Shown one piece after another: positions 12,859 through 41,302 of a stretch of DNA of 64,000 nt. A program made the position numbers and the translations under genes. Numbering within the stretch: the stretch's first letter is position 1; each line of letters begins with the position of its first letter. The notes under the pieces were generated by a model, which saw only the letters and a list, made by a program, of their open reading frames with translations, was not told where the DNA came from and made no database searches. The DNA is from a virus (Duplodnaviria > Caudoviricetes). The stretch spans positions 32,001 to 96,000 of IMG/VR virus record IMGVR_UViG_3300042465_005116; one strand, written 5' to 3'.

Positions 12859-12866
12859 TTTTTAAT

Positions 12867-14584: not shown

Positions 14585-14587
14585 AAC

Positions 14588-19336: not shown

Positions 19337-19340
19337 ATTG

Positions 19341-19979: not shown

Positions 19980-20553
19980 TTTTATCTCTATTTGAAAGTA
20001 TTGGTTGTGCTACGGGCCATTCAACATTAAATCGTTTATCGTTAAACACTATTGTTTTTTGTTTATTCTCATCGTTATATTCACCTTCATATGCCATTTT
20101 GTAAAAAAAGATAGAATTATCCTCCATCACATAATGACCATTAGCAAACATTGGTGGAATTAGAACTTGAGTACCAGTTTCCGGTGAAATTATAAAAGAT
20201 TCCCATTTACCATAAGTTGGTGAGTTTGGTCTAACATCCATTACAACCAAATATATACGACCATGCAGACAACTTACTAATTTCCAAGTCTTTTCATCAT
20301 AGTGCATTCCTCTCAATACACCTACTTTTGATTTTGAGAACCTATCGTGTTTAAATTCTAACCCATTGTTGCGTTCAGCGGCGGGCAACAAACGGTCATA
20401 ATACTCTGAGTGATAAGTTGTAGAGATTGAACCTCTATATTCGTAATACGTGGATGGTTGTACGATTTTTATCTCTGGTAATACCAATCCATTGTAATAG
20501 TGAAAATCATTCCACTCTCGTTCTTTGTAAAATATACTACGTCCTGTTGCCAT
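19969..20553 (-). CDS. rmlC: dTDP-4-dehydrorhamnose 3,5-epimerase family (cupin)
   Basis: SKSKVGVLRGMHY, KLVSCLHG, DVRPNSPTYGKW, IPPMFANG. Confidence 0.9.
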   Translation of the reverse strand: MATGRSIFYKEREWNDFHYYNGLVLPEIKIVQPSTYYEYRGSISTTYHSEYYDRLLPAAERNNGLEFKHDRFSKSKVGVLRGMHYDEKTWKLVSCLHGRIYLVVMDVRPNSPTYGKWESFIISPETGTQVLIPPMFANGHYVMEDNSIFFYKMAYEGEYNDENKQKTIVFNDKRFNVEWPVAQPILSNRDKNGN

Positions 20554-22941: not shown

Positions 22942-22943
22942 AC

Positions 22944-25170: not shown

Positions 25171-26610
25171 TTAAAGTTTTACATTTATCAACTTTGCTTT
25201 CGGTGCTAAATTTTCAATATTAATTAACTCATATTTTAATTGAGCAATTCCATCTAATTTATAATCCCATTTACCTTGTTGCATCTGTAAAACGTATCTT
25301 TTTTCATTTCGTGCCGTAGTTTCTCCCTTTGCCCACTTATCTACTCCACCTACTTTAATTAAACCTTCATCTTGATGTGGTAAACATTTCAATCTACCAG
25401 CAATTCGATGTGGTATTATAGTATATGGTATTTTTATCTCCTCTATTTTGTTTTCACAATTATATGCTATACCATTATTATCATTACCACTTTTATCAGT
25501 TACAATTCCATCTTCAAAATCATAATGTAAAATTAAATCGGCATTAATAGGTATATTTGGTATTTGTTCTACTTCGCCTTTTGATAATGCTCTGTCCCAC
25601 ATTTTAACTTCTCCTATATCACCTTTGAACCACTTACTAACATCATCTGCTGCAACTGAAGTGGTTGTTCCTAAATAATAATCAACCATACCATAACGTT
25701 TTAACATTCCTGCAAATTGTTGTGGAGAATGAGTACCAGTTCCGTGTCTTGCATCAGATTCTTTTCCATTCATATAAAAATGAATATTATTATCATCAAC
25801 TACAAGTGTAACCCATGTCCATTGGTTTTCATATCGTTTCATCCATTGATATAAATGTTCTCTTTGGTTATTCCAAAGTTGTGCAGTGTATGCTCTACTA
25901 TTATTATAACTCAATCCGTAATCATAACCTGGTCTGCGTAGTATTGGATATTCACAAAATCTTCTTTCAGTATCACCTACTAACCAAATTGGAACTTTTT
26001 CCTCTTGTTGGTGTGCACGAACTAATATTGAAATTGTATGAGAACGTGATGTTAAATTTCTTAAACTTCTTGTTGTAGGAATATGAACATATGAACTTTT
26101 ACCATCAAACGATAAAAAATGTTTAGGGGTTGATGGGTAATTCATATATGAATTGTTTGCATATCCTTCTAATATACATCTCCAAAATAGGTCATCATCT
26201 TCCATACCCCAATCCCAATAATCGTTTGAATATCCGTTGGTGCGTTCCACTTGTTCCTTTGAAAAAATGACTGCTCCACCAAAATACTCTTCGTATTTCA
26301 ACTTGTAATCCATTTGAGAGATATTTGTAGCGATGTGTATTGGGTGTTTGTCTGGAAATGAGTAATCACATCCCTCTTCAGGTATCATATCAATATCATG
26401 CCAAACTATATAATCACACCCATCTTCAAATGCGTGTTTTGCTGCAACGTTTTTCATTGCACCCCTATTGAATAATTTATCATCAACTTGATGCCCAAAA
26501 TAAATACAATAATCAATACCTTGTTCTTCAAGATACTTTCCTACTGTTGGGATAAACTCTTTTAAATGAGATTCTCTATTTCTATAAGGTACACATACTC
26601 CTAATTTCAT
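25171..26610 (-). CDS. GT7 (beta-1,4-galactosyltransferase-like) glycosyltransferase with inserted LamG-like domain
   Basis: VPYRNR, FNRG..KN, HDIDMIP (DxD), YFGG, NGYSNDYWDWGMEDDDL, then LamG-like segment, then LPH...DGIAQLKY tail. Confidence 0.85.
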   Translation of the reverse strand: MKLGVCVPYRNRESHLKEFIPTVGKYLEEQGIDYCIYFGHQVDDKLFNRGAMKNVAAKHAFEDGCDYIVWHDIDMIPEEGCDYSFPDKHPIHIATNISQMDYKLKYEEYFGGAVIFSKEQVERTNGYSNDYWDWGMEDDDLFWRCILEGYANNSYMNYPSTPKHFLSFDGKSSYVHIPTTRSLRNLTSRSHTISILVRAHQQEEKVPIWLVGDTERRFCEYPILRRPGYDYGLSYNNSRAYTAQLWNNQREHLYQWMKRYENQWTWVTLVVDDNNIHFYMNGKESDARHGTGTHSPQQFAGMLKRYGMVDYYLGTTTSVAADDVSKWFKGDIGEVKMWDRALSKGEVEQIPNIPINADLILHYDFEDGIVTDKSGNDNNGIAYNCENKIEEIKIPYTIIPHRIAGRLKCLPHQDEGLIKVGGVDKWAKGETTARNEKRYVLQMQQGKWDYKLDGIAQLKYELINIENLAPKAKLINVKL

Positions 26611-28073
26611 TATATATCTACTTTTATATGTGATACTGATGGTGAAATTACTTTATTTTCTAATTCAGTATATCGCAATGTATTTAATCCATCAATATGA
26701 TAATCCACAATACCAGTTCGTACTTTATTATAATATTTTAATTGATTTTTTCTAGTTTCATCGTGTACCCAACGATTACCAATTGAAGAATTTGATTTAT
26801 GTTTTAAAGATTTAAATTTACCATTTCTTCTATATGGTTTTGGTAAAAATGTATTAAATGATTGTGATAATTTTTCAATACTAACATTATTTAATTTAGC
26901 CTGATATTCTCCAACCAAATCTACACACTTTATATTATTTGATAATTCAGGTAGTAATTGAAAATATAAAAACTCTGATGATTTAAAGTTACCAAAATTT
27001 CTAATTTTTGGTTTTACTTTATTTTTACATATTTCTATGATTTCGTTTGGTTCTAATGCACTATCATACATTTCAACATTAGCTATATTACCATAAAAGA
27101 AATCTTTATTAGTATTCTTACCATTTGCTGCACCTATATAAATATTCTTACTTGATAAGTCTAATATTTCAGCATCCATTTTAACACTATCAATAAGATT
27201 ACCATCTAAATAAAAATATAACATATTAGTATCTTTAAATACCATAGTTAAGTGAACCCAACGTTCTCCTAATATTTCAGTTGTTATTGAGTATGGGTTT
27301 TTATTTTTATCAAACGTTTGACAGAAAAATCTACGAAACGAATTATAAAAAATACCAATATTATATCCCGGTATTGATATTATTGGATATTCATCGTAAT
27401 CTTTGTTTCGATTTATTTGCACGTCTACAGGTTTTACCATTACTGATAATGTAAAATCATTTGATAGATACGATGGTGTTTTTGCTTGTAATTCTATATA
27501 AGAATTATTACCATCAAATTTAAATGTTTCAAATATTTCAACATCACAATTATCTGAATCTTCAACATCCAATTCTAAATCAGATTCTAAACATCTTATT
27601 AATAAATCATCATCTTCAAATCCCCATCCTAAGTATTCGTTTGAATATCCATTTATTTTTTCAAAATCTGCTTTATTAAAAAGAGTAACTCCTCCAAAAT
27701 AATCAAAAAATGAAATTTCATAATCATTTTCTTGTAAATGAGTTGCTAGGTGTAGTGGTTTATCAGTATATGAATAATCTACGTTAATTGGTAACATATC
27801 TACATCGTGAAATACAAAATAATCACAATTATGATTGCATGCAATTTTATAACCTACATTTAATAGTTTACCACGATTAAATGGTTTGTCATCATTTTGT
27901 TCGATAACAAAAATTTGGTAGGTATAATTAGTCAGATATTTTTCCATATGTTTTAAAAACCTATTGAGTTGGGTTTCTCTATTACGATATGGAACAATAA
28001 CCGCTAGTTTATGCTGTTGGTGTATCACCTTCTGTTTCATTTGTTTCAATTTCTGGTTCGGTTCTTTCTGCAT
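26610..28073 (-). CDS. GT7 glycosyltransferase with inserted LamG-like domain (start uncertain)
   Basis: VPYRNR, FNRGKLLN, FHDVDMLP, NGYSNEYLGWGFEDDDL, LamG-like insert, LKH..DGLNTLRY. Confidence 0.85.
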   Translation of the reverse strand: MQKEPNQKLKQMKQKVIHQQHKLAVIVPYRNRETQLNRFLKHMEKYLTNYTYQIFVIEQNDDKPFNRGKLLNVGYKIACNHNCDYFVFHDVDMLPINVDYSYTDKPLHLATHLQENDYEISFFDYFGGVTLFNKADFEKINGYSNEYLGWGFEDDDLLIRCLESDLELDVEDSDNCDVEIFETFKFDGNNSYIELQAKTPSYLSNDFTLSVMVKPVDVQINRNKDYDEYPIISIPGYNIGIFYNSFRRFFCQTFDKNKNPYSITTEILGERWVHLTMVFKDTNMLYFYLDGNLIDSVKMDAEILDLSSKNIYIGAANGKNTNKDFFYGNIANVEMYDSALEPNEIIEICKNKVKPKIRNFGNFKSSEFLYFQLLPELSNNIKCVDLVGEYQAKLNNVSIEKLSQSFNTFLPKPYRRNGKFKSLKHKSNSSIGNRWVHDETRKNQLKYYNKVRTGIVDYHIDGLNTLRYTELENKVISPSVSHIKVDI

Positions 28074-28305
28074 CTCTTGCCGGTCTATTTACTGAACCTA
28101 CTGTTTTAGCTTTTGCAATCATATAAAATTCATTTAAATACCATTCAATCCTTTCAGACCAAACATCTACTTCTAATGCATAAACCCAGTCGTTCATATC
28201 TTCCAATGTATCAGCAATACGTTCTAATGCTTTAGTACGTCTTTCTTCCAAATTTACGGATTCGCTTTTTGCCGTTTCGTTTCCTTTAATTAATTCCTTT
28301 GCCAT
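28009..28305 (-). CDS. Small acidic hypothetical protein
   Basis: 98-aa ORF filling the gap between GT7 paralogs; 3' end overlaps the next ORF. Confidence 0.6.
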   Translation of the reverse strand: MAKELIKGNETAKSESVNLEERRTKALERIADTLEDMNDWVYALEVDVWSERIEWYLNEFYMIAKAKTVGSVNRPARDAERTEPEIETNETEGDTPTA

Positions 28306-28330
28306 TTTTGTTTTGTTTTTTTTAAATTTA

Positions 28331-29818
28331 TTAAGTTACAATTCTTAGTAATGTATACCCATCTTTCATTTCTGAATTTAAGATTGTATATTTTATATTA
28401 GATAATCCTATTTTTTTAAAATCTATTTTATCAGTTAACGCCTCATTAAAAAATATATCTGCATTTTCCTCAACATCTGGGTCATATCTATAATATTTTT
28501 GTATAATATTATCATCTCCTACGTGTATTAGTGATTTATACGTTCCATCTAATCTAGTTGGTAAAGATATCTCATCTAATAGATTTATAGTTTCATTGAA
28601 TATTGAATATTTACCTTCTACCTTTACGTGATTTCCAGCTTTACCTTTGTCTAATTTAAGTTCTGCAATACCACTAACATTATATGCGGTATCAAATCTA
28701 AAAATATTAGTTGGTATCAATCCTTCAATACTAGCAAGTTTATCCAAATATGAAATACCATCATAATATAATTTTTTAAGTTGTTCATCCGTTAATGTAT
28801 CACTAAATGTAATTATATCTGCTAATTGGATTGCTGATTGTGAATCTGAAATTTTAATACATCTATCTGAATAATTAAAGGTTTCAAATTTACCTAATTT
28901 TTTTTCTTGTACTTTTTTATTGTTCAATACAAGTTTAATTTTATTATTAGGTTTATCATAAATTAAAACTGCGTTATTCCACTTATCTTTATTGTATTCA
29001 ATACAAACATCAAAATGGTGTTCGGTATTACTCCAAATTTGTCCATTTAAATATCGACTACCAACTTCATTTTCAGATAAAAATAATCCAGTATCTGGTC
29101 CATCAAATGCAAATAAGTTTATTTTATGCATTACCTCCGATATATCTTTAAACCATAATGATATTGTAAAAGATGAATCAGTAAATCCTTGCATTAAGGA
29201 ATTCTGTGGTCCGTATAATCGAGTTTCTTTTGGTAAATCAATTCCTTTGATTGTATGGGTTTTATTAATGTTTGATATCTCAACATTTTCAATTCTATAT
29301 GGTAACACATCCCACAAATCATAATATGAATATACTTGTTGTGCATCATAATATTGTTCTAAATATACTCCTGCTTTTTCCAATCGCATTAGTAAATCTA
29401 AATCTTCAAATCCATATCCCCAATACTCATTAGAGTATCCGTTAGCCATTTCAAAATCTTCCCTATTAATTAATACAACTCCGCCAAAATATTGTGGGTA
29501 AGGTAATTTATTATTGTGTGCTTCTACGTTTGTTGCAAGGTGAGTCGGAACTGCTGGATAATTATAATCACACGAATCATTTATCGGTAACATATCAATA
29601 TCATGAAAACAAAAATATGTGTATTCTTTTGGTATTTCGTTTATTACCGCGTTACATAACTTACCATAATTAAATGGTCTATCATCTGCTTGTTCTGCTA
29701 TAAAAATAGTATAATCAATTCCTTTATTTGCAAGGAATCTATTCATGTGTGGTATAAAGACATTTAAATGTGCTTGTCTATCACGATATGGTACTATGAT
29801 TGCTAATTTATCTATCAT
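28331..29818 (-). CDS. GT7 glycosyltransferase with inserted LamG-like domain
   Basis: VPYRDR, FNYGKLCN, FHDIDMLP, YFGG, NGYSNEYWGYGFEDLDL, LamG-like insert, LIH..GLSNIKY. Confidence 0.85.
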   Translation of the reverse strand: MIDKLAIIVPYRDRQAHLNVFIPHMNRFLANKGIDYTIFIAEQADDRPFNYGKLCNAVINEIPKEYTYFCFHDIDMLPINDSCDYNYPAVPTHLATNVEAHNNKLPYPQYFGGVVLINREDFEMANGYSNEYWGYGFEDLDLLMRLEKAGVYLEQYYDAQQVYSYYDLWDVLPYRIENVEISNINKTHTIKGIDLPKETRLYGPQNSLMQGFTDSSFTISLWFKDISEVMHKINLFAFDGPDTGLFLSENEVGSRYLNGQIWSNTEHHFDVCIEYNKDKWNNAVLIYDKPNNKIKLVLNNKKVQEKKLGKFETFNYSDRCIKISDSQSAIQLADIITFSDTLTDEQLKKLYYDGISYLDKLASIEGLIPTNIFRFDTAYNVSGIAELKLDKGKAGNHVKVEGKYSIFNETINLLDEISLPTRLDGTYKSLIHVGDDNIIQKYYRYDPDVEENADIFFNEALTDKIDFKKIGLSNIKYTILNSEMKDGYTLLRIVT

Positions 29819-30669
29819 ATTTTAATTATAATTCTAGTTAATCTATCCCATTTAATGTAATCAAAATGATTATTTGTATTCATCTTTTCAAACATAAATT
29901 TATCGTTATTTATATCAATTTTAAAATCATTCCATTGAATTGCGTTATACATTAATTCATATTCAGTTGAAAACGCGTATTCTTTTTTAATATCAGCAAC
30001 CGCCTTAATTCTATCTACACAAGTACTATCCCATTTGAAATGATGTACTTGTATTAATCCTTCACCATCTCCAATTGGGTAACGTTTTGGATGAGATTCT
30101 CCCCAACTATTTGTTCCATCCTCAAACTCAGCGTAATGTTGGCCGGATGATATTTTAATAAACCCTTTCATAATACAAACCTTATTTGGACAAGCCCCAC
30201 TCATTGGATATCTAAAAAATCCAGCAAGTGGGAATTGTGTCCAAATATTTGTATGTTCATTTATCTGAGGAAACTCTCCATTTTCTCCTATCCTGTCAAT
30301 AAACCCACCTGTAACAAATTCCCAATTATTTTCTTCACAATCAGAAATTAATTCTCTAATTGGTTTTGGATAAATGTGAAACTCATCGTCATCTGAAACT
30401 ACCCACCAATCATTGGGGTGTAATAATTTTGTTTCGTTATATAATTGTGTAACATATTCCCAATTAAATTTTTCTTTTATTTCTCGTCTAACAATTTTTG
30501 CTTTAGGAAATTCTTTTACAATCTCATAAACAATATCATATGTGCTAAACTCATCCCATTCATATACAACAACATATATTTCATCAACTAAATCATTATA
30601 GTGATTTAACATATGACGTAGAGTATTTGTTCTACTTCCTGTTACTGTAACTAATCTAATTTTTTGCAT
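29815..30669 (-). CDS. GT-A fold glycosyltransferase (GT2/GT92-like)
   Basis: WWVVSDDDEF DxD motif; late QVHHFKW motif. Confidence 0.62.
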   Translation of the reverse strand: MQKIRLVTVTGSRTNTLRHMLNHYNDLVDEIYVVVYEWDEFSTYDIVYEIVKEFPKAKIVRREIKEKFNWEYVTQLYNETKLLHPNDWWVVSDDDEFHIYPKPIRELISDCEENNWEFVTGGFIDRIGENGEFPQINEHTNIWTQFPLAGFFRYPMSGACPNKVCIMKGFIKISSGQHYAEFEDGTNSWGESHPKRYPIGDGEGLIQVHHFKWDSTCVDRIKAVADIKKEYAFSTEYELMYNAIQWNDFKIDINNDKFMFEKMNTNNHFDYIKWDRLTRIIIKI

Positions 30670-31442
30670 CTCTGAATAAATGTTAACCCCGTAGAAGTTG
30701 GTTTGTTTCTTAATATCCCGTTATTAAAAAAATTAAATATTTCCCAATTGCCGGTTTCTTTTAATTCTTTTATTAATTTAGATGGGCCAGATGAAAACTC
30801 ATGAAAGTCATTTTTGGGTTTTACATCATCCGTAACAATTAATTCCTTTTCAAATGATACATCGGTATCGTGAATTGATATTATACCATAAGGTGAAAGA
30901 AGTTGTGAATATAATTCAAAATCATTTTTTACATCTTCATAGGAATGACCTGCATCTATATGTAGATAATCAATTTTAATATCTTCTTTAACAAAATAAT
31001 TATAAAATGCGTTTTCAGTAGTATCTATGATAAATCTACAAGGAAAATTAGTTCTAAAAAAAGAATTTTCAGATTCCCAATCGGTATGACCACCGATTCC
31101 ATTTGAAGCATCTACTAAAATTGTAGTACCACAATCACCCCACTCCATCATTTTATTTCCACTAAATATTTGTTGGTCGTGTAAATCAATTCTAGCTTGT
31201 GACATTAATCGCGGAATAAATCCACCACCACTCCCCAAGCATACACATGTTTTTGCTCTGAGGTATTGGATTGTTGCATAAATTAATAATCCATCCCCAA
31301 TATGTAAATCAGTAGCTCCATGTGACCATCGATATGCAACGGGTTGGTATTCAAAATATTCATCACCCTTAGTGTCTATTTTTTTAGTTCTATTATTGGT
31401 AAAAAAATCTTTTAAAATATTATAGTTGAGAATACTGCCCAT
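30651..31442 (-). CDS. Class I SAM-dependent methyltransferase (Methyltransf_24-like)
   Basis: VCLGSGGG, IDYLHIDAGHSYEDVKND, GIISIHDT. Confidence 0.82.
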   Translation of the reverse strand: MGSILNYNILKDFFTNNRTKKIDTKGDEYFEYQPVAYRWSHGATDLHIGDGLLIYATIQYLRAKTCVCLGSGGGFIPRLMSQARIDLHDQQIFSGNKMMEWGDCGTTILVDASNGIGGHTDWESENSFFRTNFPCRFIIDTTENAFYNYFVKEDIKIDYLHIDAGHSYEDVKNDFELYSQLLSPYGIISIHDTDVSFEKELIVTDDVKPKNDFHEFSSGPSKLIKELKETGNWEIFNFFNNGILRNKPTSTGLTFIQRCKKLD

Positions 31443-31623: not shown

Positions 31624-32661
31624 TTATCCTAAAATTGCTGTACGGACTTTATCAATCCATACGTCTTTATTATCAAATTTTATCATATATTCTTTAAGAT
31701 TTTTGATGTTTGCAACCCTCTCTTCATGTGAATCTTTGAGGATTTGTTTAACACATTCATCAAATTCATTTTTGGTTGAAACCCTATATTTGTATTCAAC
31801 CTCCGGTGCCCAATCTTTATTTATTATTGGTAATTTACCATAATCTACTGCTTGAAATATTGAATATCCAAATGGTTCTTTAAAATACGCTGCGTGAAAT
31901 ATACCAAAATTTTTCAACATAAAAAAATGATGATGATTAACATCCCATTGAAAAACTTCCATTCCTTTTAATGAGTAGGTACTACTATCTTTAAGATTTT
32001 GTAAATCAAACTGATTTGTTAGAATATATCCTTTATGGTCGTTTAACCAATGTACACATTTTCTTGATTCAATACGAGAAGCAAATCCAATTTTACCATT
32101 ATCAACATGAGTAGTGAGCGGTAAGTTATTTTTAAACTCATAAAAATTTGGAACGTTATATGTGTAGTTTGGATGTTCATCAATCATAGTTGTGGTATTA
32201 TTACCTACCCAAATTCTACGATTAAATGTTGCTAAATACTCATCATAAAAATCTGAATCAACTTGAGTATTATATTGTAACCTTTTTAGTTCCGGAATAG
32301 CAGAAATTGCGGCATCCATTTCTCTAGCATATGCATGAACAAAGACAGTTTTAAATTTATCTTCAAAATGCCAAATGTGCGGTCTTAAATGATAATGTGG
32401 ATGTAATACATGAATTTCTTCACACTCATCTAACCACGTTCTAGTCTTTTCAGGGTCATCGTAGTGAAAATGATGAACCAATCCCTTCGGTAAGTATTTT
32501 GATTCGAATGAAGCGGGTCTCTTGGAGTCAATAAGTAATCTCCAATCCCTTTTGACAGGTAGTGTTGGCCAAACTAATTCTAAAAAATAATTAGTCCATA
32601 TATCGGCCCCACCCATAACAGTATTACCACATCCAGTTGTAACTAAAACCTTTATACTCAT
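31624..32661 (-). CDS. Probable GT-B (GT4-like) glycosyltransferase
   Basis: N-terminal GGADIW loop; C-terminal KEPFGYSIFQAVDYGKLPII resembling the GT4 ExFG..EA motif. Confidence 0.6.
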   Translation of the reverse strand: MSIKVLVTTGCGNTVMGGADIWTNYFLELVWPTLPVKRDWRLLIDSKRPASFESKYLPKGLVHHFHYDDPEKTRTWLDECEEIHVLHPHYHLRPHIWHFEDKFKTVFVHAYAREMDAAISAIPELKRLQYNTQVDSDFYDEYLATFNRRIWVGNNTTTMIDEHPNYTYNVPNFYEFKNNLPLTTHVDNGKIGFASRIESRKCVHWLNDHKGYILTNQFDLQNLKDSSTYSLKGMEVFQWDVNHHHFFMLKNFGIFHAAYFKEPFGYSIFQAVDYGKLPIINKDWAPEVEYKYRVSTKNEFDECVKQILKDSHEERVANIKNLKEYMIKFDNKDVWIDKVRTAILG

Positions 32662-32690: not shown

Positions 32691-33242
32691 TTAAACAAAC
32701 GATTTTTCTCTAACCCACACAATTGCAATCCACTTTGTACCACTAATAACTGGCAATCCTGCATGTAAACTTTCAAAATCTAAACTACCATCTATTTTTA
32801 GATTACTCCACATTAACATACGACCAGTTTTTGGTGTTACTTTTATTTTTTTAGTAGGAAATTCGGTTTCACCCCCTTCAAATTCATCGTTTAAATAAAA
32901 TAAACAAGATACCACCCTCTGACCACCTGATTTCATAGTAGTATCGTAATAATCAGTATTTGGATGGAAAAAATCATGATGTGTTTTATATTCACCACCA
33001 ACGTTATATTTTACAATATGTATTTGTTCTTGATTTTCAATTGGAAGTCCTGATTTACTTGAAATTATTTTTTTTATTTTTGTTGTTAATTCTGTTTTTG
33101 AATGAATCCACGTATTTTCAGCAACCCTATAATTTTCAATTGGAGTTCCTAATGTAGAAGCACTTATCATATTTGCAGAACCCATTTCAATTAGTTCTTT
33201 ACATTCTGCTTCAGATATTTCATAATCAATTATTGCTATCAT
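32691..33242 (-). CDS. Prolyl 4-hydroxylase-like 2OG-Fe(II) oxygenase
   Basis: EQIHIVKYNVG, HHD (HxD), QRVVSCLFYLND, GGETEFP, LHAGLPV..GTKW (distal His and 2OG-binding Lys). Confidence 0.92.
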   Translation of the reverse strand: MIAIIDYEISEAECKELIEMGSANMISASTLGTPIENYRVAENTWIHSKTELTTKIKKIISSKSGLPIENQEQIHIVKYNVGGEYKTHHDFFHPNTDYYDTTMKSGGQRVVSCLFYLNDEFEGGETEFPTKKIKVTPKTGRMLMWSNLKIDGSLDFESLHAGLPVISGTKWIAIVWVREKSFV

Positions 33243-33245
33243 AAC

Positions 33246-34103
33246 TTATTTTTTACAAGTTGTACATTCTTTATAAACTTCATTTACCCATTCTAAAGTA
33301 GTTCTTTCAGTTCCACCATAATCTTTTAAACCAGTAACAAAATCCATATTTGGATTGAATTTACTCCAATTACATAATTCTCTATAAGAACTATTATAAT
33401 TTGGAATATATTTATGCCAAATTATATTTTTTCTAATTGCAAATACATCATAACCACTTTTAAATAGTAAAAGGGAATATATTTCTTGTTCTTTAGTTGG
33501 GTTGTAATATTCGTTTACTTTTAATATATTTACAATTTCACCACTACCAAATAAGTTACCTCCTGATATATTCATCACTTTTTCATAACCATCAATTGGG
33601 TGTCTCATACAATGTGGGGGAATAAATTCAGGTGTCCACGTCGGTGCATTAGATGTATATATTGTGGCAACGTTTCGTTTACTATATACATCATATGTTT
33701 CATTAAATTCAAAAATCTGTGGAAATACACTAATAACTCCCTTTGATGGTATTTCACTTAATTGATTAATATATTCATCATCCCACCCTATCAAAAATCT
33801 AGAATGAGAATCTACACATAAAAAATAATCTTCATTATTATATAAATTTTCCATTATTAAATTCCTAGCCCATCCACATCCTTGTGCATCAGAAGCTAGT
33901 ATTTGCATAAATTTTACATTTAAATAAAATAGATGGTTATTAATTAAATCTGTTATTCTTTTTTGTTCTACCTCAGTATCTTGCAAACACACTCCAATAA
34001 ATACATTATTTGGATTATTCGCTTTATTAAAACAATCTATTATAGTGTTAACAACATCAAAATCTTTATATGAAGCTATACTTACAAATATCGTTTTATT
34101 CAT
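33246..34103 (-). CDS. GT60-like (Skp1-hydroxyproline GlcNAc transferase Gnt1 family) glycosyltransferase
   Basis: TIFVSIASYKD, FIGVCLQ, AQGCGWAR, EDYFLCVDSHSRFLIGWD (DSH motif), later EQ..S..LF..GYD..IWH. Confidence 0.8.
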   Translation of the reverse strand: MNKTIFVSIASYKDFDVVNTIIDCFNKANNPNNVFIGVCLQDTEVEQKRITDLINNHLFYLNVKFMQILASDAQGCGWARNLIMENLYNNEDYFLCVDSHSRFLIGWDDEYINQLSEIPSKGVISVFPQIFEFNETYDVYSKRNVATIYTSNAPTWTPEFIPPHCMRHPIDGYEKVMNISGGNLFGSGEIVNILKVNEYYNPTKEQEIYSLLLFKSGYDVFAIRKNIIWHKYIPNYNSSYRELCNWSKFNPNMDFVTGLKDYGGTERTTLEWVNEVYKECTTCKK

Positions 34104-34112
34104 AATTATTTA

Positions 34113-35732
34113 TTATTCTATTTGTTTTACTTCTGCTCGGTTATGTACTAATATACCACTGCCAAAGTATACGTCATCATCTTCAATATTAACACTAACA
34201 GTTTGACAAGTTTCATTAATGAATTCAATGTCGCGTATTCTAACCCATATATCATTGGTATTAAATAAATAATCACCCACTAATAAATTATAAACCTTAC
34301 AAAACTTATATTCATTACCTCTTTTTATAAACACAGGATGTTCATATGTTATTCGTATTGATTTATTTATAATATAATAATTGGAATAAGACCCATGCAT
34401 TAAAGTTACAACCCTTGCTGTTGATGGTTCAAACCAAAATTTAGTATCAGAAAAATTAACCCAATTTTTTTCAATATCCTTATCTAATCCTTCTATTGAT
34501 AAACTACTAAGAATATCTCCCAATACTAAATCTTCAATTAATTTATTACTACCATCAGCCATTTTAATTTCAGTACCATAAAGAAAACACGGGTCTTCTT
34601 CCGGTGGAGGAGGTGGTGGTGGAGTTGGTGTTGGTGGAGGCGGAGGTGGTGCCGGACAACTACTTACTGTATTAATAAACCCATTACCTTCTACATAGTA
34701 AACTGAAGTTCCGTTTGAATAATATCCATCGGCTGCATTCGAACTACCATCACTAGCTGATTTTAATACACATTGTGCAATAAGTGATGAACAAGTACTC
34801 CATACTTCCGTAGTTACACCCATAGCACATGCCAACGAATCATCTCCCGCATTATATCCAAAATTAAATGAATAATATGTTGGAGGTGCCGGCGTAGGCG
34901 GAGGTGGAGTTGGTGGTGCAACATAACATGCAACAGCACTTATCCCATATCTAACACCCGCTCCAGTTGTAGCGTTATAAATATAAACACCATAACTTCC
35001 ACCATAATCACCTACACCTGTAAAAGTGTACGATGTTGCACTACCAATTGATAACGTAGCCAATGCTGCAGGACTAGCAGTATCCACACTATATCCAACG
35101 TAACAATCACTTCCACCATTTGCTATATTTTCTATAAATATTCGACCACTTGCACCCGTTGTTCCACTACAATCTTGTGTAACAGTAGCAGTTACCGCAG
35201 GTGGTGGAGTTGGTGGTGGTGGAGTTGGTGGTGGTGGAGTTGGACACGTACATCCATTAATGCCAGTTGCACGAAAAAGATGAGTATCAGTTGGAGTGTA
35301 TGATGTTCCTACTGCTATATAACAAATTTCATTTACATCATCGTATATATTTGTTCCGTAATTATAACTTCCAAAAATATGTCCCTGTGCTACCCCACCC
35401 GTACCACATTGTGATAAATATGTATATACCTGAGGAGCCGGTGTTGGAGGTGGTGGAGTTGGAGGAGCCGGAGTTGGTGGAGCCGGTGTTGGTGGAGCCG
35501 GAGTTGGAGGTGCCGGTGTTGGAGGTGCTGGAGTTGGAGGTGCAGGTGTTGGAGGAGCTGGAGTTGGAGGAGTTCCTGTTCCTCTTCCAAGAAACTCATC
35601 CATACCATGTGGTTTTGTAGGAATCCCATATGCTATAGCAGCCGTATCCATATCAACTTGAGTACCTGATGCAATATTTCTATCGGTATTAAATAAATTA
35701 AATGATATTTCTCCTGTAGACGGTAATGCCAT
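34113..35732 (-). CDS. Pro/Thr-rich, Cys-rich putative virion (tail-fibre-associated) protein with C-terminal Hint domain
   Basis: N-terminus MALPSTGEISF; four Pro-rich blocks separating Cys-rich segments; Hint CFLYGT...EHP...ILVHN; translationally coupled to tail fibre stop. Confidence 0.8.
   Translation of the reverse strand: MALPSTGEISFNLFNTDRNIASGTQVDMDTAAIAYGIPTKPHGMDEFLGRGTGTPPTPAPPTPAPPTPAPPTPAPPTPAPPTPAPPTPAPPTPPPPTPAPQVYTYLSQCGTGGVAQGHIFGSYNYGTNIYDDVNEICYIAVGTSYTPTDTHLFRATGINGCTCPTPPPPTPPPPTPPPAVTATVTQDCSGTTGASGRIFIENIANGGSDCYVGYSVDTASPAALATLSIGSATSYTFTGVGDYGGSYGVYIYNATTGAGVRYGISAVACYVAPPTPPPPTPAPPTYYSFNFGYNAGDDSLACAMGVTTEVWSTCSSLIAQCVLKSASDGSSNAADGYYSNGTSVYYVEGNGFINTVSSCPAPPPPPPTPTPPPPPPPEEDPCFLYGTEIKMADGSNKLIEDLVLGDILSSLSIEGLDKDIEKNWVNFSDTKFWFEPSTARVVTLMHGSYSNYYIINKSIRITYEHPVFIKRGNEYKFCKVYNLLVGDYLFNTNDIWVRIRDIEFINETCQTVSVNIEDDDVYFGSGILVHNRAEVKQIE
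34140..34589 (-). other. Hint (intein-like autoprocessing) domain, 150 aa, no endonuclease
   Basis: Starts CFLYGTEIKMADG..IEDLVLGD, block B-like ITYEHP, ends NIEDDDVYFGSGILVHN; +1 residue is Arg. Confidence 0.85.
35433..35570 (-). repeat. 15-bp coding tandem repeat, (PPTPA/PPTPP) x9
   Basis: 46 codons; units vary at synonymous positions. Further Pro-rich blocks near 35200-35245, 34885-34920 and 34600-34655. Confidence 0.95.
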
Positions 35733-38700
35733 TACTTATTCTCTTTTAACTCGTTAATTTCTTTTTTCAATTCCTTAATACACTCAACTAATAAGGGTAC
35801 AATTTTTTCGTATTTGATAGCAAGGTATCCATCTACTCTTTTTACCACAACCTCGGGTAAAATTGTTTCTACTTGTTGAGCAATTAAACCTACATCGTGT
35901 TTTCTTATAAAGTAATTATCTTCGCCCTTACCACCACTTTCTTTTTGAATATATTCATCTGTCCAATCAAATTCTACCCCATCTAATTTTTCTATTTTAT
36001 CAAGAGCTTTTCCTATTGGTATAATATTTTCTTTTAATCTTTTATCTGAAGTAGCGAATGCAGTTATATTTCCGGTAGCAGTAATACCACCACCAACTGC
36101 AACGAAATTAGTATTTGCCTCATTTCTTTCAACTTTAAGATATCTATCAGTACTTGCTACAACTTGGAAACCACCCGCAACTAATTCAGTTTTCGATACT
36201 TGTTGTGATACCGATATAGTACTTATCTTTGGAGTGTTATAAGAGACACTAACATCAAAAGTTGCAACTGTTCCTGAATCACGATACGCAACACATACTC
36301 CATTTTTAATATAAGGTACAAAATAATATGTTGTACTTGGTGATAATGAAATAGCCCCGGTTAAAGTACCAAACGCATCACCGCTGGCCCAACCAAATTG
36401 CTCTTCTATGATAGTGTTACCATATCCAAATACCTCTGAAAAATTTATTGCTTTCGATATATCTAAAACTTCATTAGCTATACCTGTACCACCCGCTCTA
36501 ACGGAAATCCCTATGGTATAGTAGTGTTGTACATAACTTATATAAGGAGTATTTCCCCCAAATGGTTGATTACCCGGTTCTAAATATACACTATAATTTG
36601 AAAGTACCCCATGCCATAAATTTGTACTTATGGAATAAATTCCAGTAGTCCCAGCACTTGTAGTAAAACTAGGTGATGAACCAGGAGTCCATTCTAAATA
36701 TGTTGGGTCCATATTAGCAGATATTTGTGTAACATATTGGGAAGTGTTACCAGCATATTGTTGCTGAGTATTATAATTTGTTACTGAAGTTGGACTTATT
36801 GTTACACTACCGGCACTTAAACTACTCAATGTAGAGGCGTTACTTATATCTACCCTTAATGCAGTACCCTCATAAATTTCAATAGCAGGTCTTGCTGCGT
36901 TTAATCTTAATTTTTCAGTTGAATCTCGTATACTTGTAGGAGTTACAGTCCAACCCCCAATGTTACCGGTGGTAGCCGAAACTCTACCAGTAATATCCGC
37001 ACCGGTTGCAAACAATATACCGGCATTAGTTACCCTAAACGGGGCATTACCAAATGTAGCATTTCCTAACCACATTCCATTACTATCTGCTTTAAAAATA
37101 GTATTTGAACTACCAATTGAAATTGCTCCGGTACTATCTAATATTGCTGCTCCACCTGTTAAAGTGGTTGCACCCAATGTCCACCCACCAATAGTACCAG
37201 AAGTTGCTTTTAAAACTCCCGCGGGTGTTACACTAAATTCTGCACTTCCAAATGTTTCATTACCTAAATAAATTCCACTAGTATCCGCAGTAAATACACT
37301 TTCACCACTACCAATTCGAATAGAACCATTAAACGTTCCTGTTGCTGCGGATAATGCACCACTAAACGTTCCTCCACCATTAACAGTTAAAGATGTTCCA
37401 TCCCATAATAGGGAATTACTAGCAGATTTTAAAGACAATCTATATACGGGTGAACTACTAACATTAACCACCCCCATAAAAATACCATTTACATTATACC
37501 CTTGTGAACCGGCTGATGAACTTTGTCCGATAGATATGTACGGATAGGCACTGCCACCTGCTAAAGTAATATTTGCTGCTGCCATTGCACCATTCGAATT
37601 CGTACCAATGTTTAAAGTGTTTTGAACAAACGAATCTTCAAATATACCTATTTTAGCTGCAACAAAGAAATCTTGTGCACCTAACGATATCCAACCCGTT
37701 TGTGCTGCTTGATGTGGTGCACCATTTATTACGTTTCCTGTTGCTGAAAGATGTTGTCTAGTAGTTGCGTAGTATGTATTATACGGAGCGTTTCCATTTG
37801 TACTCCATAAGACAGTATCTCTTCTACCAGTCCCCGTTGTTAACCCATCTGAAAATTGATAGGTTCTACCACTTGTCCAAACTCCGGTATGAACCACACC
37901 AGGACCTGTTTGACCCGTTGCACCATCATCTCCATCAGTTCCATCAGTTCCATCAGTTCCATCAGTTCCATCAGTTCCGTTAATTGTTACATTTACTTTA
38001 TGTTCTTTAGTTATTGTACCGGTAGTTCCTTCCGAATTTACATATGTTATAGTAATAGCTACAGTCGTACCTGCATCGGTAGTTGGTGTGGTTGGTGTTA
38101 TAGTTGTAGTTCCCGTTCCACCTGTTAATGAAATTTGATATGTATTTATTGCACCACCAGTTGAATATGTATAATTTGTTCCACCTTCGTTTACACTAAT
38201 TGTAAATGTAGCAGGTGTAGCATATACCCCAGCGTTTGTTTTTGTAATCGATTGACCTTCATTTGATAACGTTGCAATTACTACCGGTGCAGCTTTTTTA
38301 ACTTTTGATAAACTTAATGTATCAGTTAGAGTTCTACTTGTCCCTTCAGAATCCGTAACTACTGCTGATATTGCTATTGTTGTAGAATTTGTTCCCGCTG
38401 CTAAAGTTTTTCCATTTAACGTTACCAACCCACTTGCAGCAGTAGTTGATATTGATGTAATATCTGAAGATGTTGCAGTTAACGATGTTATTGTTTTTGT
38501 TGTAGTAGAACCATTATAAGTTTCCCTTACAACTATTGTTGAATTTGCAAATGAATCAATTTGTGCACCGGTTGATTTAGCAGTTACACTTTGGTCTTTT
38601 GGTGTTGCAGAAATTGCAAGAACCGGAGCAGCTTTTTTATTTTTTGTATAAGTTGCAGTTTTTATAACACTTGTGGTATCTCCGGCACCATCTTTATAAT

Positions 38701-41302
38701 TAATTGTAATATCTAAAGAACCAGAATCTGCTGCAAGTGCGGTTATACCATATACGTTTGTAGATGGATTTGTAATATTTGGAGTACAACCTATTCCGCT
38801 TAAATTAGTTATTGCAAATGTATTATTAGCTCTAAGATTATCATTATCATCATCAAATGTAATAGTCTCATTTCCCACTTTTACGTTTACCGAACCACTT
38901 GTAAAAACAAAATCACCATTTGCTACAACTCCAGTTGAAAGTGCAGGCAAGGATGTATTATCATTTGTTAATGTAACTGATAATCCATCTAATATTTTTA
39001 CAGGAGTTATGGTTACCGCATCTGAAAATTTATTTCCAAATTGGTCAGACCCTGTGAATGAATATGTAGTAGAACCACTTAAAAATGGATATGCAGAACC
39101 AGCTAATGTGAATAACGTTACACCTGAAGTAGCATCAGTTGCTCCAATAGTTAAAGGTGGTTTTAAACTACCAGAATTTACTTCTAATGTACCAGTAGTT
39201 GATGCTAAATTTTTTCTTTTAGCCTCTATTGTAATTACTTGGCCTGATGGATTTAAGGATAAATCAGTTGCCTTATAAATAAATTGGTTAGCGTTTGAAG
39301 TTGTAAATAGACCGGGTGCATTTTCTCCATCTTCAAATCTATAAATGGTTTCGAACTCATTTAACCCATCACATGATGCAGTATAAGTTATAGAACCAAT
39401 TAATACTGATGGTACACTACCACTAAAATTAGCAATAGTTAAACTTGCACCACCATCTCCTGCGTTTGTTAAAAGACCAGGATATGTTCCCGCATAACTA
39501 GCAGGAACTATATAATTACCATCTGTATCAAACGCAGCAGATGCATAAGTAACCGAACCTGTTAAATTAGTTCTACTAATTGAGAATCCAACTTGTTGAA
39601 AAGCAGGATTACCAAACGAACCACTCGTAAAACGAAATGCAGTTCTATCTGATTCAAATGTTAAGATTTTTGAGGTAGTTGTAAAACTGTTACCACCATT
39701 AAATGTTTTTGAAGTTTTTACATCAACGGGAATATAATTGTTATTTATATCGTAAAATTCAAATTTGAAATCATATGTCTCACTCGCAAGTTTACGAGGA
39801 ATATCTTGTATTAAAGTAAATTCATCAGGTGAAAACGAAGTTTCTTGTGCGTTTTGTAAACTCACATTTGCCAAATACCAATCATCACCCGCAAACTCAA
39901 ATACTAATTTAGCATCTCCAGTCTTAGTAGCCTTTACATTTTGAGTTACGTTTTGTTTTGTAGTATATATCGCCGAATTAGTAACATTTACGATAGTTTG
40001 TTGTGGATAATCCGAACCACTAAAATATGCTTTTAAAGTTTTAGTCGAATCATTTGAACCACTTAGGAGTGTTTTGAATGAAAGGGTATACTCAACTCCC
40101 TCTGTCAGAGATAGAGATTGAGATGTAATAAAAAGGGCAGTATTATCATAATTTGAACCACTATAATCTACCTTAACCGATGCGTTTAATTTATCTACAT
40201 TAATTGTAATTGGATGTGCAGTTGAACCACTTACCCAATAATTTTTTATATTGGTATCCGTAAACTGACCATAGGATAATTCCGTATTAGCAGTTGTTGT
40301 TATATCTTTTAGTATTTCTGATGATTCTAATTTAGTATCTTGTATGAATTGGTAATCACCAACTTCGTTTCTAGATTTTCTATAAACCTTTACTCTCGCT
40401 ACATCACCAACAAATGTTTTTAAATCTGATAATTGAATTTTAGCAAAAGAACCCGTCAACGCCGAGTTGATAATCGTCTGACCTTCAATATGGTCAAATG
40501 TAGTTGTGTAGGCAGTAGCAGGAAAATTTGAAACGGATGATGATACCGCATATGGAATATCTACAAATATTTCTTTGTTATTTAAGACCTCTCTTATAGT
40601 TGCCGAATACCCTAATGATGGTATTGTTATGGTATTTTCATCAACGGATGATGTCCAATTTGAACCATCGGTAATTTTTAATTTATATAAAGTTCCGGCT
40701 GTCCAAGTTCGAATATCAGTACCATAAACTGGTTGTTGTGGGATACCTTCAACCAATCCCGTTTGAGTAACTGATGGGGTTGTTATATTAAAAATGGGTT
40801 TATTTATCTCATCAATTGTAATTTTTGGTCTTTTATAAAACCTAACAATAGTTTCATTCGAAAGATTTTTATTTACATTAAACGTTCTCTCCCACTTAAT
40901 ATTATAGATACCACTCCACTCAGCAGGAATATCTCTAACTACTCCGGTCTCATCAATATAGGTTTTTAATTCACCTAATACAGTAATTTTTCCTAAACCA
41001 ATAGGGGTATCCTCATAGACATGAACTGATACAATTTTTGAAATTCCTTCGTAGTATTCTGGTATACCATTACCCGGCTCGTAATAAATCGGTGTGCCGG
41101 TAACATCTAATATCTCAATTTTAATTTCAGTTGTTTCCTTTAAATGTTCAGAACCCTCTATAAGAAACCCATTCTTACCACCGGTGAAGGTATCTTTAAA
41201 TTCGGTAATTCTAAAATATTCAGACGTTCTAACTTGGTCATTTATAAATGTACCAAAGTTTGATAAGTTTTGATACGAAGCGAACGATTTAATTATTGCC
41301 AT
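35732..41302 (-). CDS. Long tail fibre protein with C-terminal intramolecular chaperone (peptidase S74)
   Basis: C-terminal ATSDKRLKENI..DGVEFDW..GLIAQQVE..PEVV..KYEKIVPLLVECIKEL; Gly/Ser/Thr-rich fibre repeats (IGGWT twice); two KKAAPV Ig-like units; short collagen-like stretch. Confidence 0.87.
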   Translation of the reverse strand: MAIIKSFASYQNLSNFGTFINDQVRTSEYFRITEFKDTFTGGKNGFLIEGSEHLKETTEIKIEILDVTGTPIYYEPGNGIPEYYEGISKIVSVHVYEDTPIGLGKITVLGELKTYIDETGVVRDIPAEWSGIYNIKWERTFNVNKNLSNETIVRFYKRPKITIDEINKPIFNITTPSVTQTGLVEGIPQQPVYGTDIRTWTAGTLYKLKITDGSNWTSSVDENTITIPSLGYSATIREVLNNKEIFVDIPYAVSSSVSNFPATAYTTTFDHIEGQTIINSALTGSFAKIQLSDLKTFVGDVARVKVYRKSRNEVGDYQFIQDTKLESSEILKDITTTANTELSYGQFTDTNIKNYWVSGSTAHPITINVDKLNASVKVDYSGSNYDNTALFITSQSLSLTEGVEYTLSFKTLLSGSNDSTKTLKAYFSGSDYPQQTIVNVTNSAIYTTKQNVTQNVKATKTGDAKLVFEFAGDDWYLANVSLQNAQETSFSPDEFTLIQDIPRKLASETYDFKFEFYDINNNYIPVDVKTSKTFNGGNSFTTTSKILTFESDRTAFRFTSGSFGNPAFQQVGFSISRTNLTGSVTYASAAFDTDGNYIVPASYAGTYPGLLTNAGDGGASLTIANFSGSVPSVLIGSITYTASCDGLNEFETIYRFEDGENAPGLFTTSNANQFIYKATDLSLNPSGQVITIEAKRKNLASTTGTLEVNSGSLKPPLTIGATDATSGVTLFTLAGSAYPFLSGSTTYSFTGSDQFGNKFSDAVTITPVKILDGLSVTLTNDNTSLPALSTGVVANGDFVFTSGSVNVKVGNETITFDDDNDNLRANNTFAITNLSGIGCTPNITNPSTNVYGITALAADSGSLDITINYKDGAGDTTSVIKTATYTKNKKAAPVLAISATPKDQSVTAKSTGAQIDSFANSTIVVRETYNGSTTTKTITSLTATSSDITSISTTAASGLVTLNGKTLAAGTNSTTIAISAVVTDSEGTSRTLTDTLSLSKVKKAAPVVIATLSNEGQSITKTNAGVYATPATFTISVNEGGTNYTYSTGGAINTYQISLTGGTGTTTITPTTPTTDAGTTVAITITYVNSEGTTGTITKEHKVNVTINGTDGTDGTDGTDGTDGDDGATGQTGPGVVHTGVWTSGRTYQFSDGLTTGTGRRDTVLWSTNGNAPYNTYYATTRQHLSATGNVINGAPHQAAQTGWISLGAQDFFVAAKIGIFEDSFVQNTLNIGTNSNGAMAAANITLAGGSAYPYISIGQSSSAGSQGYNVNGIFMGVVNVSSSPVYRLSLKSASNSLLWDGTSLTVNGGGTFSGALSAATGTFNGSIRIGSGESVFTADTSGIYLGNETFGSAEFSVTPAGVLKATSGTIGGWTLGATTLTGGAAILDSTGAISIGSSNTIFKADSNGMWLGNATFGNAPFRVTNAGILFATGADITGRVSATTGNIGGWTVTPTSIRDSTEKLRLNAARPAIEIYEGTALRVDISNASTLSSLSAGSVTISPTSVTNYNTQQQYAGNTSQYVTQISANMDPTYLEWTPGSSPSFTTSAGTTGIYSISTNLWHGVLSNYSVYLEPGNQPFGGNTPYISYVQHYYTIGISVRAGGTGIANEVLDISKAINFSEVFGYGNTIIEEQFGWASGDAFGTLTGAISLSPSTTYYFVPYIKNGVCVAYRDSGTVATFDVSVSYNTPKISTISVSQQVSKTELVAGGFQVVASTDRYLKVERNEANTNFVAVGGGITATGNITAFATSDKRLKENIIPIGKALDKIEKLDGVEFDWTDEYIQKESGGKGEDNYFIRKHDVGLIAQQVETILPEVVVKRVDGYLAIKYEKIVPLLVECIKELKKEINELKENK
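37898..37978 (-). repeat. Collagen-like Gly-X-Y stretch, (GTD)5-GDD-GAT-GQT-GPG
   Basis: 9-bp unit ccatcagtt repeated five times on the plus strand. Confidence 0.9.

Follow-up and report, generated by a model that had tools for sequence, protein, structure and literature searches.

We analysed a 64,000-nucleotide (nt) stretch of DNA from an uncultured tailed phage (positions 32,001 to 96,000 of IMG/VR record IMGVR_UViG_3300042465_005116; hereafter the window), in which a tail-fibre gene is directly followed by three consecutive genes for a protein with proline/threonine (Pro/Thr) repeats, a glycosyltransferase of the GT60 family and a prolyl 4-hydroxylase (P4H). Every gene of the window is on the minus strand and its GC content is ~30%. 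Judging from its Gp20-type portal (E-value (E) 3.6e-68) and T4-type large terminase, the window derives from a large T4-like myovirus, and this GT60 protein is also on record from a contig of as much as 229 kb. Among cultured phages, portal identity is highest to Microcystis phage Mel-JY01 (52%) and Flavobacterium phage immuto (46%); when the region was searched by megablast against 50,697 phage records, no match and no near-identical DNA came up. The three genes, which we refer to as the cassette, and the tail-fibre gene are arranged as follows (lengths in amino acids, aa).

35732..41302, minus strand: tail fibre, 1856 aa, with a Peptidase_S74 domain
34113..35732, minus strand: P0001, Pro/Thr-repeat protein, 539 aa (translation and domain map)
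33246..34103, minus strand: P0002, GT60-family glycosyltransferase, 285 aa (PF11397)
32691..33242, minus strand: P0003, prolyl 4-hydroxylase, 183 aa, single domain (PF13640)

The cassette genes are separated by 9 nt (P0001/GT60) and 3 nt (GT60/P4H), and the TAA stop codon of the tail-fibre gene overlaps the ATG of the P0001 gene in a TAATG junction. The open reading frame (ORF) coordinates agree with the initial annotation of this DNA, in which the three genes had been placed consecutively, with the same gaps, right behind the tail fibre. The Peptidase_S74 intramolecular-chaperone domain, a hallmark of self-cleaving tail fibres and spikes, occupies C-terminal residues 1752-1819 of the fibre (E 4.8e-15), and homologous tail fibres stand at the equivalent position in four T4-like relatives (L001, L002, L003 and L014). 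No specific name for any cassette protein came from NCBIfam, and a scan of 30.5-42 kb for promoters and terminators returned the same counts as shuffled sequence and was hence uninformative.

The identification of P0003 as a P4H, already made in the initial annotation, held up in a profile search, in which it matched PF13640 at 65.6 bits (cut-off 27; E 8e-18). All nine of its matches in the PDB are collagen, transmembrane, algal, viral or Bacillus P4Hs, including those of Bacillus anthracis (3ITQ, E 3.7e-28), Chlamydomonas (P4H-1, 2JIG, 2e-24), human (C-P4H alpha-2, 7ZSC, 3.5e-23) and PBCV-1 (5C5T, 1.2e-15), and there is no PHD or PhyA chain among the PDB matches at E<=0.01. Residues H88, D90, H160 and K170 show no variation among 36 unique phage homologues and align with the B. 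anthracis enzyme, and the HxD...H...K site, comprising the Fe(II) triad and the 2-oxoglutarate (2OG)-binding lysine, is intact. On these matches P0003 is of the collagen/algal/PBCV-1/Bacillus type and not of the Skp1 PhyA/PHD type, and it belongs to the branch of P4Hs that hydroxylates repetitive Pro-rich sequences, not to the PHD/EF-Tu type. A P4H of Microcystis phage Mel-JY01 (41% identical) was considered as a cultured example of the cassette and rejected, as its gene has no GT60 or repeat-protein gene nearby.

P0002 likewise passed its profile check as a GT60-like transferase, matching PF11397 at 125.8 bits (cut-off 21; E 3.5e-36), and both of the motifs previously noted are present, IFVSIASY at residues 5-12 and DSH at residues 98-100. 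PF11397 was found in all 47 close homologues, and an alignment of 31 homologues shows no variation at D98-S99-H100, the DxH metal-binding motif, or at H230. A PDB sequence search gave no match and a fold search was used in its place; the AlphaFold2 (AF2) model (pLDDT 92.8) has as its nearest solved folds the GT27 polypeptide N-acetylgalactosamine (GalNAc)-transferases T12, T2, T4 and Toxoplasma T3, and also SpsA. GT27 enzymes start mucin O-glycans on Thr or Ser, and to our knowledge the characterised GT60 members are all protein-directed (in CAZy, Dictyostelium Gnt1 and Trypanosoma cruzi OGNT). We propose that P0002 adds the first sugar to the repeats of P0001, a prediction consistent with this fold. 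Neither P0002, a bare soluble catalytic domain, nor the P4H has a signal peptide or a hydrophobic membrane anchor, which fits action in the cytoplasm, the site of virion assembly. The PF11397 family is very large in metagenomes: a profile search retrieved 3606 unnamed proteins, with no named Gnt1 or OGNT among them, and IMG/VR holds at least 517 stretches with PF11397. The only copies found in cultured phages are those of the Xanthomonas jumbo phages XacN1 and Xoo-sp13 (24-27% identical), which adjoin DNA-polymerase and carbamoyltransferase genes and were rejected as examples of the cassette, there being no P4H or repeat protein nearby.

The candidate substrate, P0001, consists of small domains alternating with Pro-rich tracts and ending in a domain of the Hint type.

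35571..35732, minus strand: N-terminal domain MALPxSG...MDEF, residues 1-54, conserved in four relatives
35430..35570, minus strand: Pro/Thr tract 1, residues 55-101, nine PPTPA-type units
35241..35429, minus strand: domain A, residues 102-164, 4 Cys, homologue in L001
35193..35240, minus strand: Pro/Thr tract 2, residues 165-180
34917..35192, minus strand: domain B, residues 181-272, homologue in L003
34875..34916, minus strand: Pro/Thr tract 3, residues 273-286
34653..34874, minus strand: domain C, residues 287-360, 4 Cys, counterparts in L001-L003 and L014
34590..34652, minus strand: Pro-rich tract 4, residues 361-381
34116..34589, minus strand: Hint domain, residues 382-539 (HMMER relatives and AF2 fold)

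The repeat array had been described as (PPTPA)9; there are indeed nine units at residues 55-99, of which the first seven are exact PPTPA, the eighth reads PPTPP and the ninth is again PPTPA. Three further Pro/Thr tracts, also seen earlier, are present at residues 165-180, 273-286 and 361-381, and the domains between the tracts, with 3-4 Cys per 63-92 residues, are better called Cys-containing than Cys-rich. Synonymous differences distinguish all nine DNA units of the array, with the peptide preserved, which points to selection at the level of the peptide and not to recent slippage. P0001 is the sole protein with long Pro/Thr tracts in the window; its repeats are of the PPTPA/PPPPT kind, and it has neither an SPPPP motif nor a signal peptide. 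A tblastn search with residues 1-381 against cultured phages found no match. Homologous MALPxSG... Pro/Thr proteins occupy the equivalent place in L001-L003 and L014. Domain A has a homologous domain in L001 that is duplicated in L014, and domain C resembles the N-terminal part of separate ORFs of 135-148 aa in L001-L003 (234 aa in L014). Domain B, which is 59% identical to a protein of L003, is probably an Ig-like beta-sandwich; its ESM Atlas model is similar to the SprB/fn3-type domains found in surface proteins of Bacteroidota (TM 0.67-0.69), a similarity we treat as a lead only. A further lead is the overlap of the ESM Atlas model of the N-terminal domain with the N-terminus of the Gp38 tail-fibre adhesin (TM 0.79), to which, at 54 residues, we attach little weight. 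Pfam GP38 did not match P0001, although the position of its gene directly after the fibre gene does fit a Gp38-type adhesin, and the N-terminal domain possibly attaches P0001 to the tail fibre.

The C-terminal domain of P0001 had been overlooked in the initial annotation. Tract 4 ends in ...EEDP, immediately ahead of Cys382, the first of a set of Hint catalytic residues that also comprises Thr462-x-x-His465 and His530-Asn531; an eight-residue tail follows the HN and has no nucleophile at the +1 position. Pfam Hint families match this region below threshold only, and a word-based homologue search returned just a fragment of the same protein, so that an exhaustive HMMER search was required; this identified 1793 relatives at E<=1e-3 and 403 at E<=1e-10. 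Nearly all of these relatives form the extreme C-terminus of their host proteins, which are 150-3400 aa long. The C, TxxH and HN residues are invariant across 41 aligned sequences, whereas the residue following HN varies, and the tail behind HN is about 1-17 residues long and frequently Lys-terminated. The AF2 model (pLDDT 94.2) has as its top Foldseek folds Tetrahymena BUBL1 BIL2 (6Y75, E 2.9e-9, TM 0.71/0.77) and a Clostridium thermocellum bacterial-intein-like (BIL) domain (2LWY, TM 0.74/0.85), with inteins and hedgehog (1AT0) ranking after them. On the strength of this model, the C-terminus of P0001 is a Hint (bacterial-intein-like) domain with intact catalytic residues, and P0001 would be a self-processing precursor. 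BIL domains cleave, or splice by aminolysis, and the BUBL versions can pass the upstream polypeptide to an amine. The phage domain shares with BIL domains and the Tetrahymena BUBL BIL the fold, the catalytic Cys1, the TxxH, the terminal HN and the lack of a nucleophile after it, but differs in standing at the very end of structural proteins, in P0001 after a Pro-rich linker, with only a short tail behind it. A Hint domain of the same type stands directly upstream of GT60 in L014, and cultured Erwinia jumbo phages have Hint-ended proteins whose annotation is virion structural or tail fibre. Hint/BIL-like domains of this kind also deserve interest in their own right, being very widespread as the closing module of phage structural proteins; since Pfam Hint families detect the module below threshold only, it looks like an undescribed subfamily, and with about 1800 relatives barely detected by curated profile libraries it constitutes a separate lead.

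The association of the three genes was examined in 56 viral GT60 clusters, dereplicated at 90% identity, for each of which ~7 kb was fetched on either side. In 33 of the 56, a P4H gene adjoins GT60 or is found no more than a few kb away. Pro/Thr-rich ORFs are present within ~7 kb in 23 of these 33 clusters, compared with three of the 23 clusters that have no P4H (Fisher test, odds ratio 15, p 3e-5, a p-value that overstates independence because the clusters share ancestry). The co-occurrence of P4H, GT60 and Pro-repeat genes that the initial annotation had singled out as a check thus extends both to relatives of the window and to unrelated lineages, and P4H and GT60 genes are adjacent in three genome architectures, often 0-7 nt apart or with one gene between them.

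The first architecture is that of the T4-like relatives L001, L002, L003 and L014, whose GT60 proteins are 64-75% identical to that of the window. Their gene order is tail fibre, MALP Pro/Thr protein, small domain-C protein, GT60, one or two GT2-like genes and P4H, and the small protein of L014 terminates in P11 and a Hint domain. In L014 the GT60 is also fused to a second domain of ~340 residues (7001-8905, 634 aa in total) and is followed by two extra GT2-like genes; the cassette is highly plastic. In the second architecture, that of crAss-like contigs (L004-L008, L010 and others), GT60 and P4H are 45-50% and 31-37% identical, respectively, to those of the window, GT60 neighbours a two-domain P4H, and directly upstream, near muzzle genes, lie the genes for TP/SP-repeat proteins, which in some cases measure 1455-2047 aa. 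The third is found on further tailed-phage contigs with tail-fibre PHROGs, a T4-type DNA polymerase and a carbamoyltransferase, on which the order is tail fibre, APT/TPAP-repeat protein, P4H, an enzyme of 900-1230 aa with one or two GT60 domains, and another GT60. The occurrence of a P4H-GT60 pair in both T4-like and crAss-like phages hints at gene exchange via common hosts, possibly Bacteroidota, because of these identities together with the SprB-like lead for domain B and the 30% GC content.

Several variants of the cassette were encountered among these loci. In the large enzymes of the third architecture (L036 4232-7915, L049 4277-7897, L041 2531-5662 and similar), GT60 forms the C-terminal part, the gene starts 0-7 nt past that for P4H, and a Nol-like carbamoyltransferase follows; the GT60 gene of the Xanthomonas jumbo phages is likewise followed by a carbamoyltransferase gene. 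A second 2OG-oxygenase-like domain (HxD...H) is fused to P4H or encoded after it in L001 (9300-10406) and L002 (10307-10804), and occurs also in crAss-like loci; it is absent from the window P4H. In L017 (5537-6103) and L020 it stands alone, the P4H domain being absent, and these two loci were rejected as examples of GT60 and repeats without any oxygenase because a 188-aa 2OG-oxygenase-like ORF is in place. A radical-SAM/SPASM enzyme lies between P4H and GT60 in crAss-like loci (L004 7078-7986, L006 7099-8001, L010 4228-5136, L017 6100-7008); it has no homologue in the window and may carry out a third modification of Cys-containing repeat proteins, for example a thioether or other cross-link.

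Gene identities, intact catalytic residues, folds and a conserved gene neighbourhood are thus directly established. A functional link between P4H, GT60 and the Pro/Thr protein is well supported, because the neighbourhood is conserved in unrelated phages and both enzyme families are protein-directed, and the predicted modification of the repeats is likewise well supported by gene context. Our preferred explanation, to which we assign a probability of about 45%, is that the cassette is a cytoplasmic phage O-glycosylation system that acts on the phage's own tail-associated Pro/Thr protein through a hydroxyproline (Hyp)-linked route. In the chemistry we infer, P0001 would be translated directly after the tail fibre, with its translation coupled to that of the fibre, and the soluble P4H, using O2, Fe(II) and 2OG, would convert prolines of the PPTPA-type linkers to 4-hydroxyproline. 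The soluble GT60 would then add the first sugar to the linkers, probably N-acetylglucosamine (GlcNAc), with hydroxyproline as the favoured acceptor and threonine as the alternative. In this phage, a trio of GT7 enzymes with lectin-like domains, a GT-B-like enzyme and a methyltransferase, all encoded beyond the cassette and described below, may extend or decorate the glycan, and action of GT7 on GlcNAc would yield a core of the N-acetyllactosamine (LacNAc) type. The Hint domain would excise itself at the Pro381-Cys382 junction via a thioester, and the mature glycoprotein, potentially a series of small beta-sandwich domains strung on stiff, protease-resistant, glycosylated linkers, would sit on the tail fibre via its conserved N-terminal domain. 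A more ambitious version, in which marine tailed phages, probably with Bacteroidota hosts among others, run an O2-dependent pathway from Hyp through GlcNAc and a LacNAc-like core to rare sugars, with the Hint thioester cutting the glycoprotein or fixing it covalently on the fibre, strikes us as rather doubtful.

A number of observations weigh against the Hyp-linked route. The cassette was found in no cultured phage by megablast of the region or by GT60 searches, and literature searches on phage P4H, GT60 and hydroxyproline glycosylation returned nothing relevant; the initial annotation had known of no characterised bacteriophage example, and we likewise found none in the papers or cultured phages covered. 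The donor sugar is not deducible from sequence, and the shared ancestry of the GT60 clusters tempers the association test. There is also no Pro/Thr ORF in the fetched flanks of 10 of the 33 clusters with both enzymes, and solo phage P4H genes without a nearby GT60 or repeat protein, such as that of Mel-JY01, exist. The earlier claim that the PBCV-1 P4H acts on its own Pro-rich repeats was not borne out, as its activity has been shown on synthetic peptides only and Hyp was not found in virions (PMC7019647). Finally, Thr or Ser is present in every cassette-adjacent repeat family (PPTPA, TPTPSP, APTTAPT), which fits glycosylation of Thr or Ser at least equally well.

This last point also speaks for an alternative in which GT60 glycosylates Thr/Ser directly, in the manner of the T. 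cruzi mucin enzyme, and the P4H merely stiffens or stabilises polyproline-II linkers, with Hyp not being an acceptor. The nearest folds to GT60, the GT27 GalNAc-transferases, do use Thr/Ser, and the linker ahead of the Hint domain in L014 is pure poly-Pro, so Thr-less Pro tracts occur as plain linkers. We nevertheless consider direct Thr/Ser glycosylation somewhat unlikely, since the adjacency of P4H and GT60 in three architectures suggests consecutive steps, as with PhyA and Gnt1, GT60 loci without P4H are mostly without Pro/Thr proteins as well, and even L017 and L020, which have no P4H domain, retain a 2OG-oxygenase-like ORF at that spot. A different objection concerns the target: the two enzymes might act on a host protein as part of takeover, or on another virion protein, with the Pro/Thr tracts being ordinary unmodified linkers. 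Marine and Bacteroidota surface proteins often contain Pro/Thr linkers, and the repeat-less third of the P4H+GT60 clusters, the commonness of solo P4H genes in phages and the PBCV-1 virion result could all be read in this way. However, Pro/Thr ORFs are enriched near P4H+GT60 by the odds ratio of 15 given above and are directly adjacent in T4-like, crAss-like and further tailed-phage loci, the window's only long Pro/Thr protein is the product of the neighbouring gene, and the P4H belongs with the enzymes that hydroxylate repetitive Pro-rich sequences, not with the PHD/EF-Tu type; another target therefore appears improbable to us.

A last alternative is that the transferases, GT60 included, build a non-protein glycan, either a host surface polysaccharide or a DNA modification, and that the P4H is unrelated to them. 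The ~21 kb of sugar-nucleotide and transferase genes that adjoin the cassette are in keeping with such a role, as is the resemblance of P0050, encoded next to the P4H, to GT-B enzymes that include the T4 DNA alpha-glucosyltransferase. This we think very improbable, because L001 has GT60, P4H and Pro/Thr proteins without the sugar cluster, the fold of GT60 is nearest to polypeptide transferases, and a polysaccharide pathway leaves the co-occurrence of GT60 and P4H unexplained.

The system we propose, a Hyp-linked route on the phage's own Pro/Thr protein, would represent known chemistry in a new biological setting, with the enzyme pair in a compact cassette beside its likely substrate. One of the closest parallels is the Skp1 pathway of Dictyostelium and Toxoplasma, to which the initial annotation had compared it. 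Both systems are cytoplasmic and pair a 2OG-dependent P4H with a soluble DxH GT60 and, possibly, extending transferases, so the parallel serves as an analogy for the order of reactions; it does not extend to a homologous pathway, as the phage P4H has no PhyA/PHD-type match in the PDB. The Skp1 system uses a PhyA/PHD-type P4H on a single proline of Skp1, whereas the phage has a collagen/algal-type P4H and, presumably, a long repetitive virion-protein linker as its substrate. Unlike those of the Skp1 pathway, the phage genes form one cassette and the candidates for extension are GT7 enzymes; the extending enzymes of Skp1 are of families GT2/GT74/GT77/GT8/GT32. We know of no Skp1-like gene in phages or bacteria. 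The T. cruzi mucin GT60, a UDP-GlcNAc:polypeptide alpha-GlcNAc-transferase, and animal GT27 enzymes share the GT-A fold and DxH motif and start O-glycans on Thr in Pro/Thr-rich repeats, but they are Golgi membrane proteins that need no hydroxylase, whereas the phage GT60 is a soluble catalytic domain of 285 aa that lacks a lectin domain and whose gene is coupled to that of a P4H. Plant and algal extensins and arabinogalactan proteins (AGPs) are likewise modified by collagen-type P4Hs on repetitive Pro-rich sequence, with sugars on Hyp (and Ser); the plant transferases, however, are GT95/GT31/GT96 arabinosyl- and galactosyl-transferases of the secretory pathway and not GT60, and as the phage repeats have no Ser-Pro4 motif their likeness to extensins/AGPs is compositional only.

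Viral precedents exist for parts of the scheme. In mimivirus, the L230 lysyl hydroxylase/glucosyltransferase and the R699 glucosyltransferase modify the virus's own collagen (PMC9546862, PMC9614988). This is likewise a case of a viral 2OG hydroxylase and a glycosyltransferase acting sequentially on a repetitive structural protein, but it involves hydroxylysine on collagen Gly-X-Y repeats, different enzyme families and a giant amoeba virus, not a bacteriophage. Glycosyltransferases of Che8-type mycobacteriophages reportedly modify the phages' own virion proteins in the bacterial cytoplasm, as is said to have been described by Freeman and colleagues in 2023; there, no hydroxylase or GT60 is involved and the targets are the C-termini of capsid and tail-tube proteins. 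Hyp-coupled protein O-glycosylation is regarded as eukaryotic, being known from plants, algae and the protist Skp1 pathway. If the more ambitious version is true, no hydroxyproline-linked glycan system would have been known outside eukaryotes before this one, which would also be a widespread, exchangeable glyco-coat module for the receptor-binding organelles of phages. Confirmation of the chemistry would mean that phage tail organelles can bear self-made mucin- or extensin-like glycoproteins, with a bearing on protease resistance, on sticking to or slipping through polysaccharide-rich host surfaces and marine gels, and on the evasion of host receptors or grazers. It would also provide glyco-engineers with a minimal soluble P4H and GT60 pair, compatible with the bacterial cytoplasm and with a defined repeat substrate.

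Beyond the P4H gene, the cassette of the window is followed by further transferase genes and a sugar-nucleotide cluster.

31624..32661, minus strand: P0050, 345 aa, adjoining P4H, with homologues near P4H in L002 and L003
30651-31442, minus strand: Methyltransf_24 gene (Pfam)
29815-30669, minus strand: weak GT2-like gene (sub-threshold Pfam match)
28331-29818, 26610-28073 and 25171-26610, minus strand: three GT7 + Laminin_G_3 fusions (Pfam)
10911..25138, minus strand: sugar-nucleotide cluster (Pfam/NCBIfam), absent from L001

P0050 has no Pfam or NCBIfam match and is probably a GT-B-fold glycosyltransferase, the lead being its ESM Atlas feature scores of 0.96-0.97 to clusters of Glycos_transf_1 and of T4 AGT. 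Both the Glyco_transf_7N and 7C halves match in each of the three GT7 paralogues (E 1e-17 to 1e-23), and the GT7 domain matches beta-1,4-galactosyltransferase 1 in the PDB at E 5e-30. As the normal acceptor of that enzyme is GlcNAc, extension of a GlcNAc by GT7 with galactose or GalNAc is an attractive scheme, based on gene position. The fusion of a metazoan-type GT7 to a ConA-like Laminin_G_3 domain, in three tandem paralogues (25171-29818, minus strand), is in itself unusual for a phage. The downstream genes had been said to comprise GT7, GT-A, GT-B and sugar-synthesis genes, of which the GT7 and sugar-synthesis assignments stand, whereas the GT-A gene has only a sub-threshold Pfam match and the GT-B gene only the language-model lead.

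The sugar-nucleotide cluster at 10911..25138 contains three SDR epimerase/dehydratases, an RmlC-like epimerase, split thiamine pyrophosphate (TPP) E1-like genes, two radical-SAM enzymes (one twitch-type), a HAD phosphatase and several unknowns, and its link to the Pro/Thr protein would follow from position. The elaboration genes at 25171..31442 are conserved in L003 and absent from L001, in which P4H is directly followed by a homologue of the window gene at 5811-10763 and then by the terminase, with no sugar cluster. Since L001 keeps the core without the ~21-kb cluster, the core is the functional unit and the 10.9-31.4 kb block is accessory; the sugar-synthesis genes noted earlier are present, but not as part of the core. 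Within the cluster, the split TPP E1 alpha/beta-like genes and the twitch radical-SAM (NF033640, E 3e-98), at 12313-12858, 19341-19979 and 23723-25138 (minus strand), point, by their occurrence among SDR and RmlC genes, to an unusual sugar as the product, which is perhaps branched or C-modified. The gene at 5811-10763 (minus strand), between the sugar cluster and the terminase, encodes a 1650-aa protein with an N-terminal cytidylyltransferase-like domain; L001 (1146 aa) conserves the C-terminal part of this protein, and a 965-aa protein with a similar N-terminus stands at this position in L014. Finally, ~10 kb upstream of the cassette, a gene for a Sulfotransfer_2 enzyme (46123-46695, minus strand; E 2.6e-14) adjoins one for a SegE-type GIY-YIG homing endonuclease (45735-46139, minus strand). 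The Sulfotransfer_2 family includes animal carbohydrate sulfotransferases, and the enzyme could sulfate a glycan.

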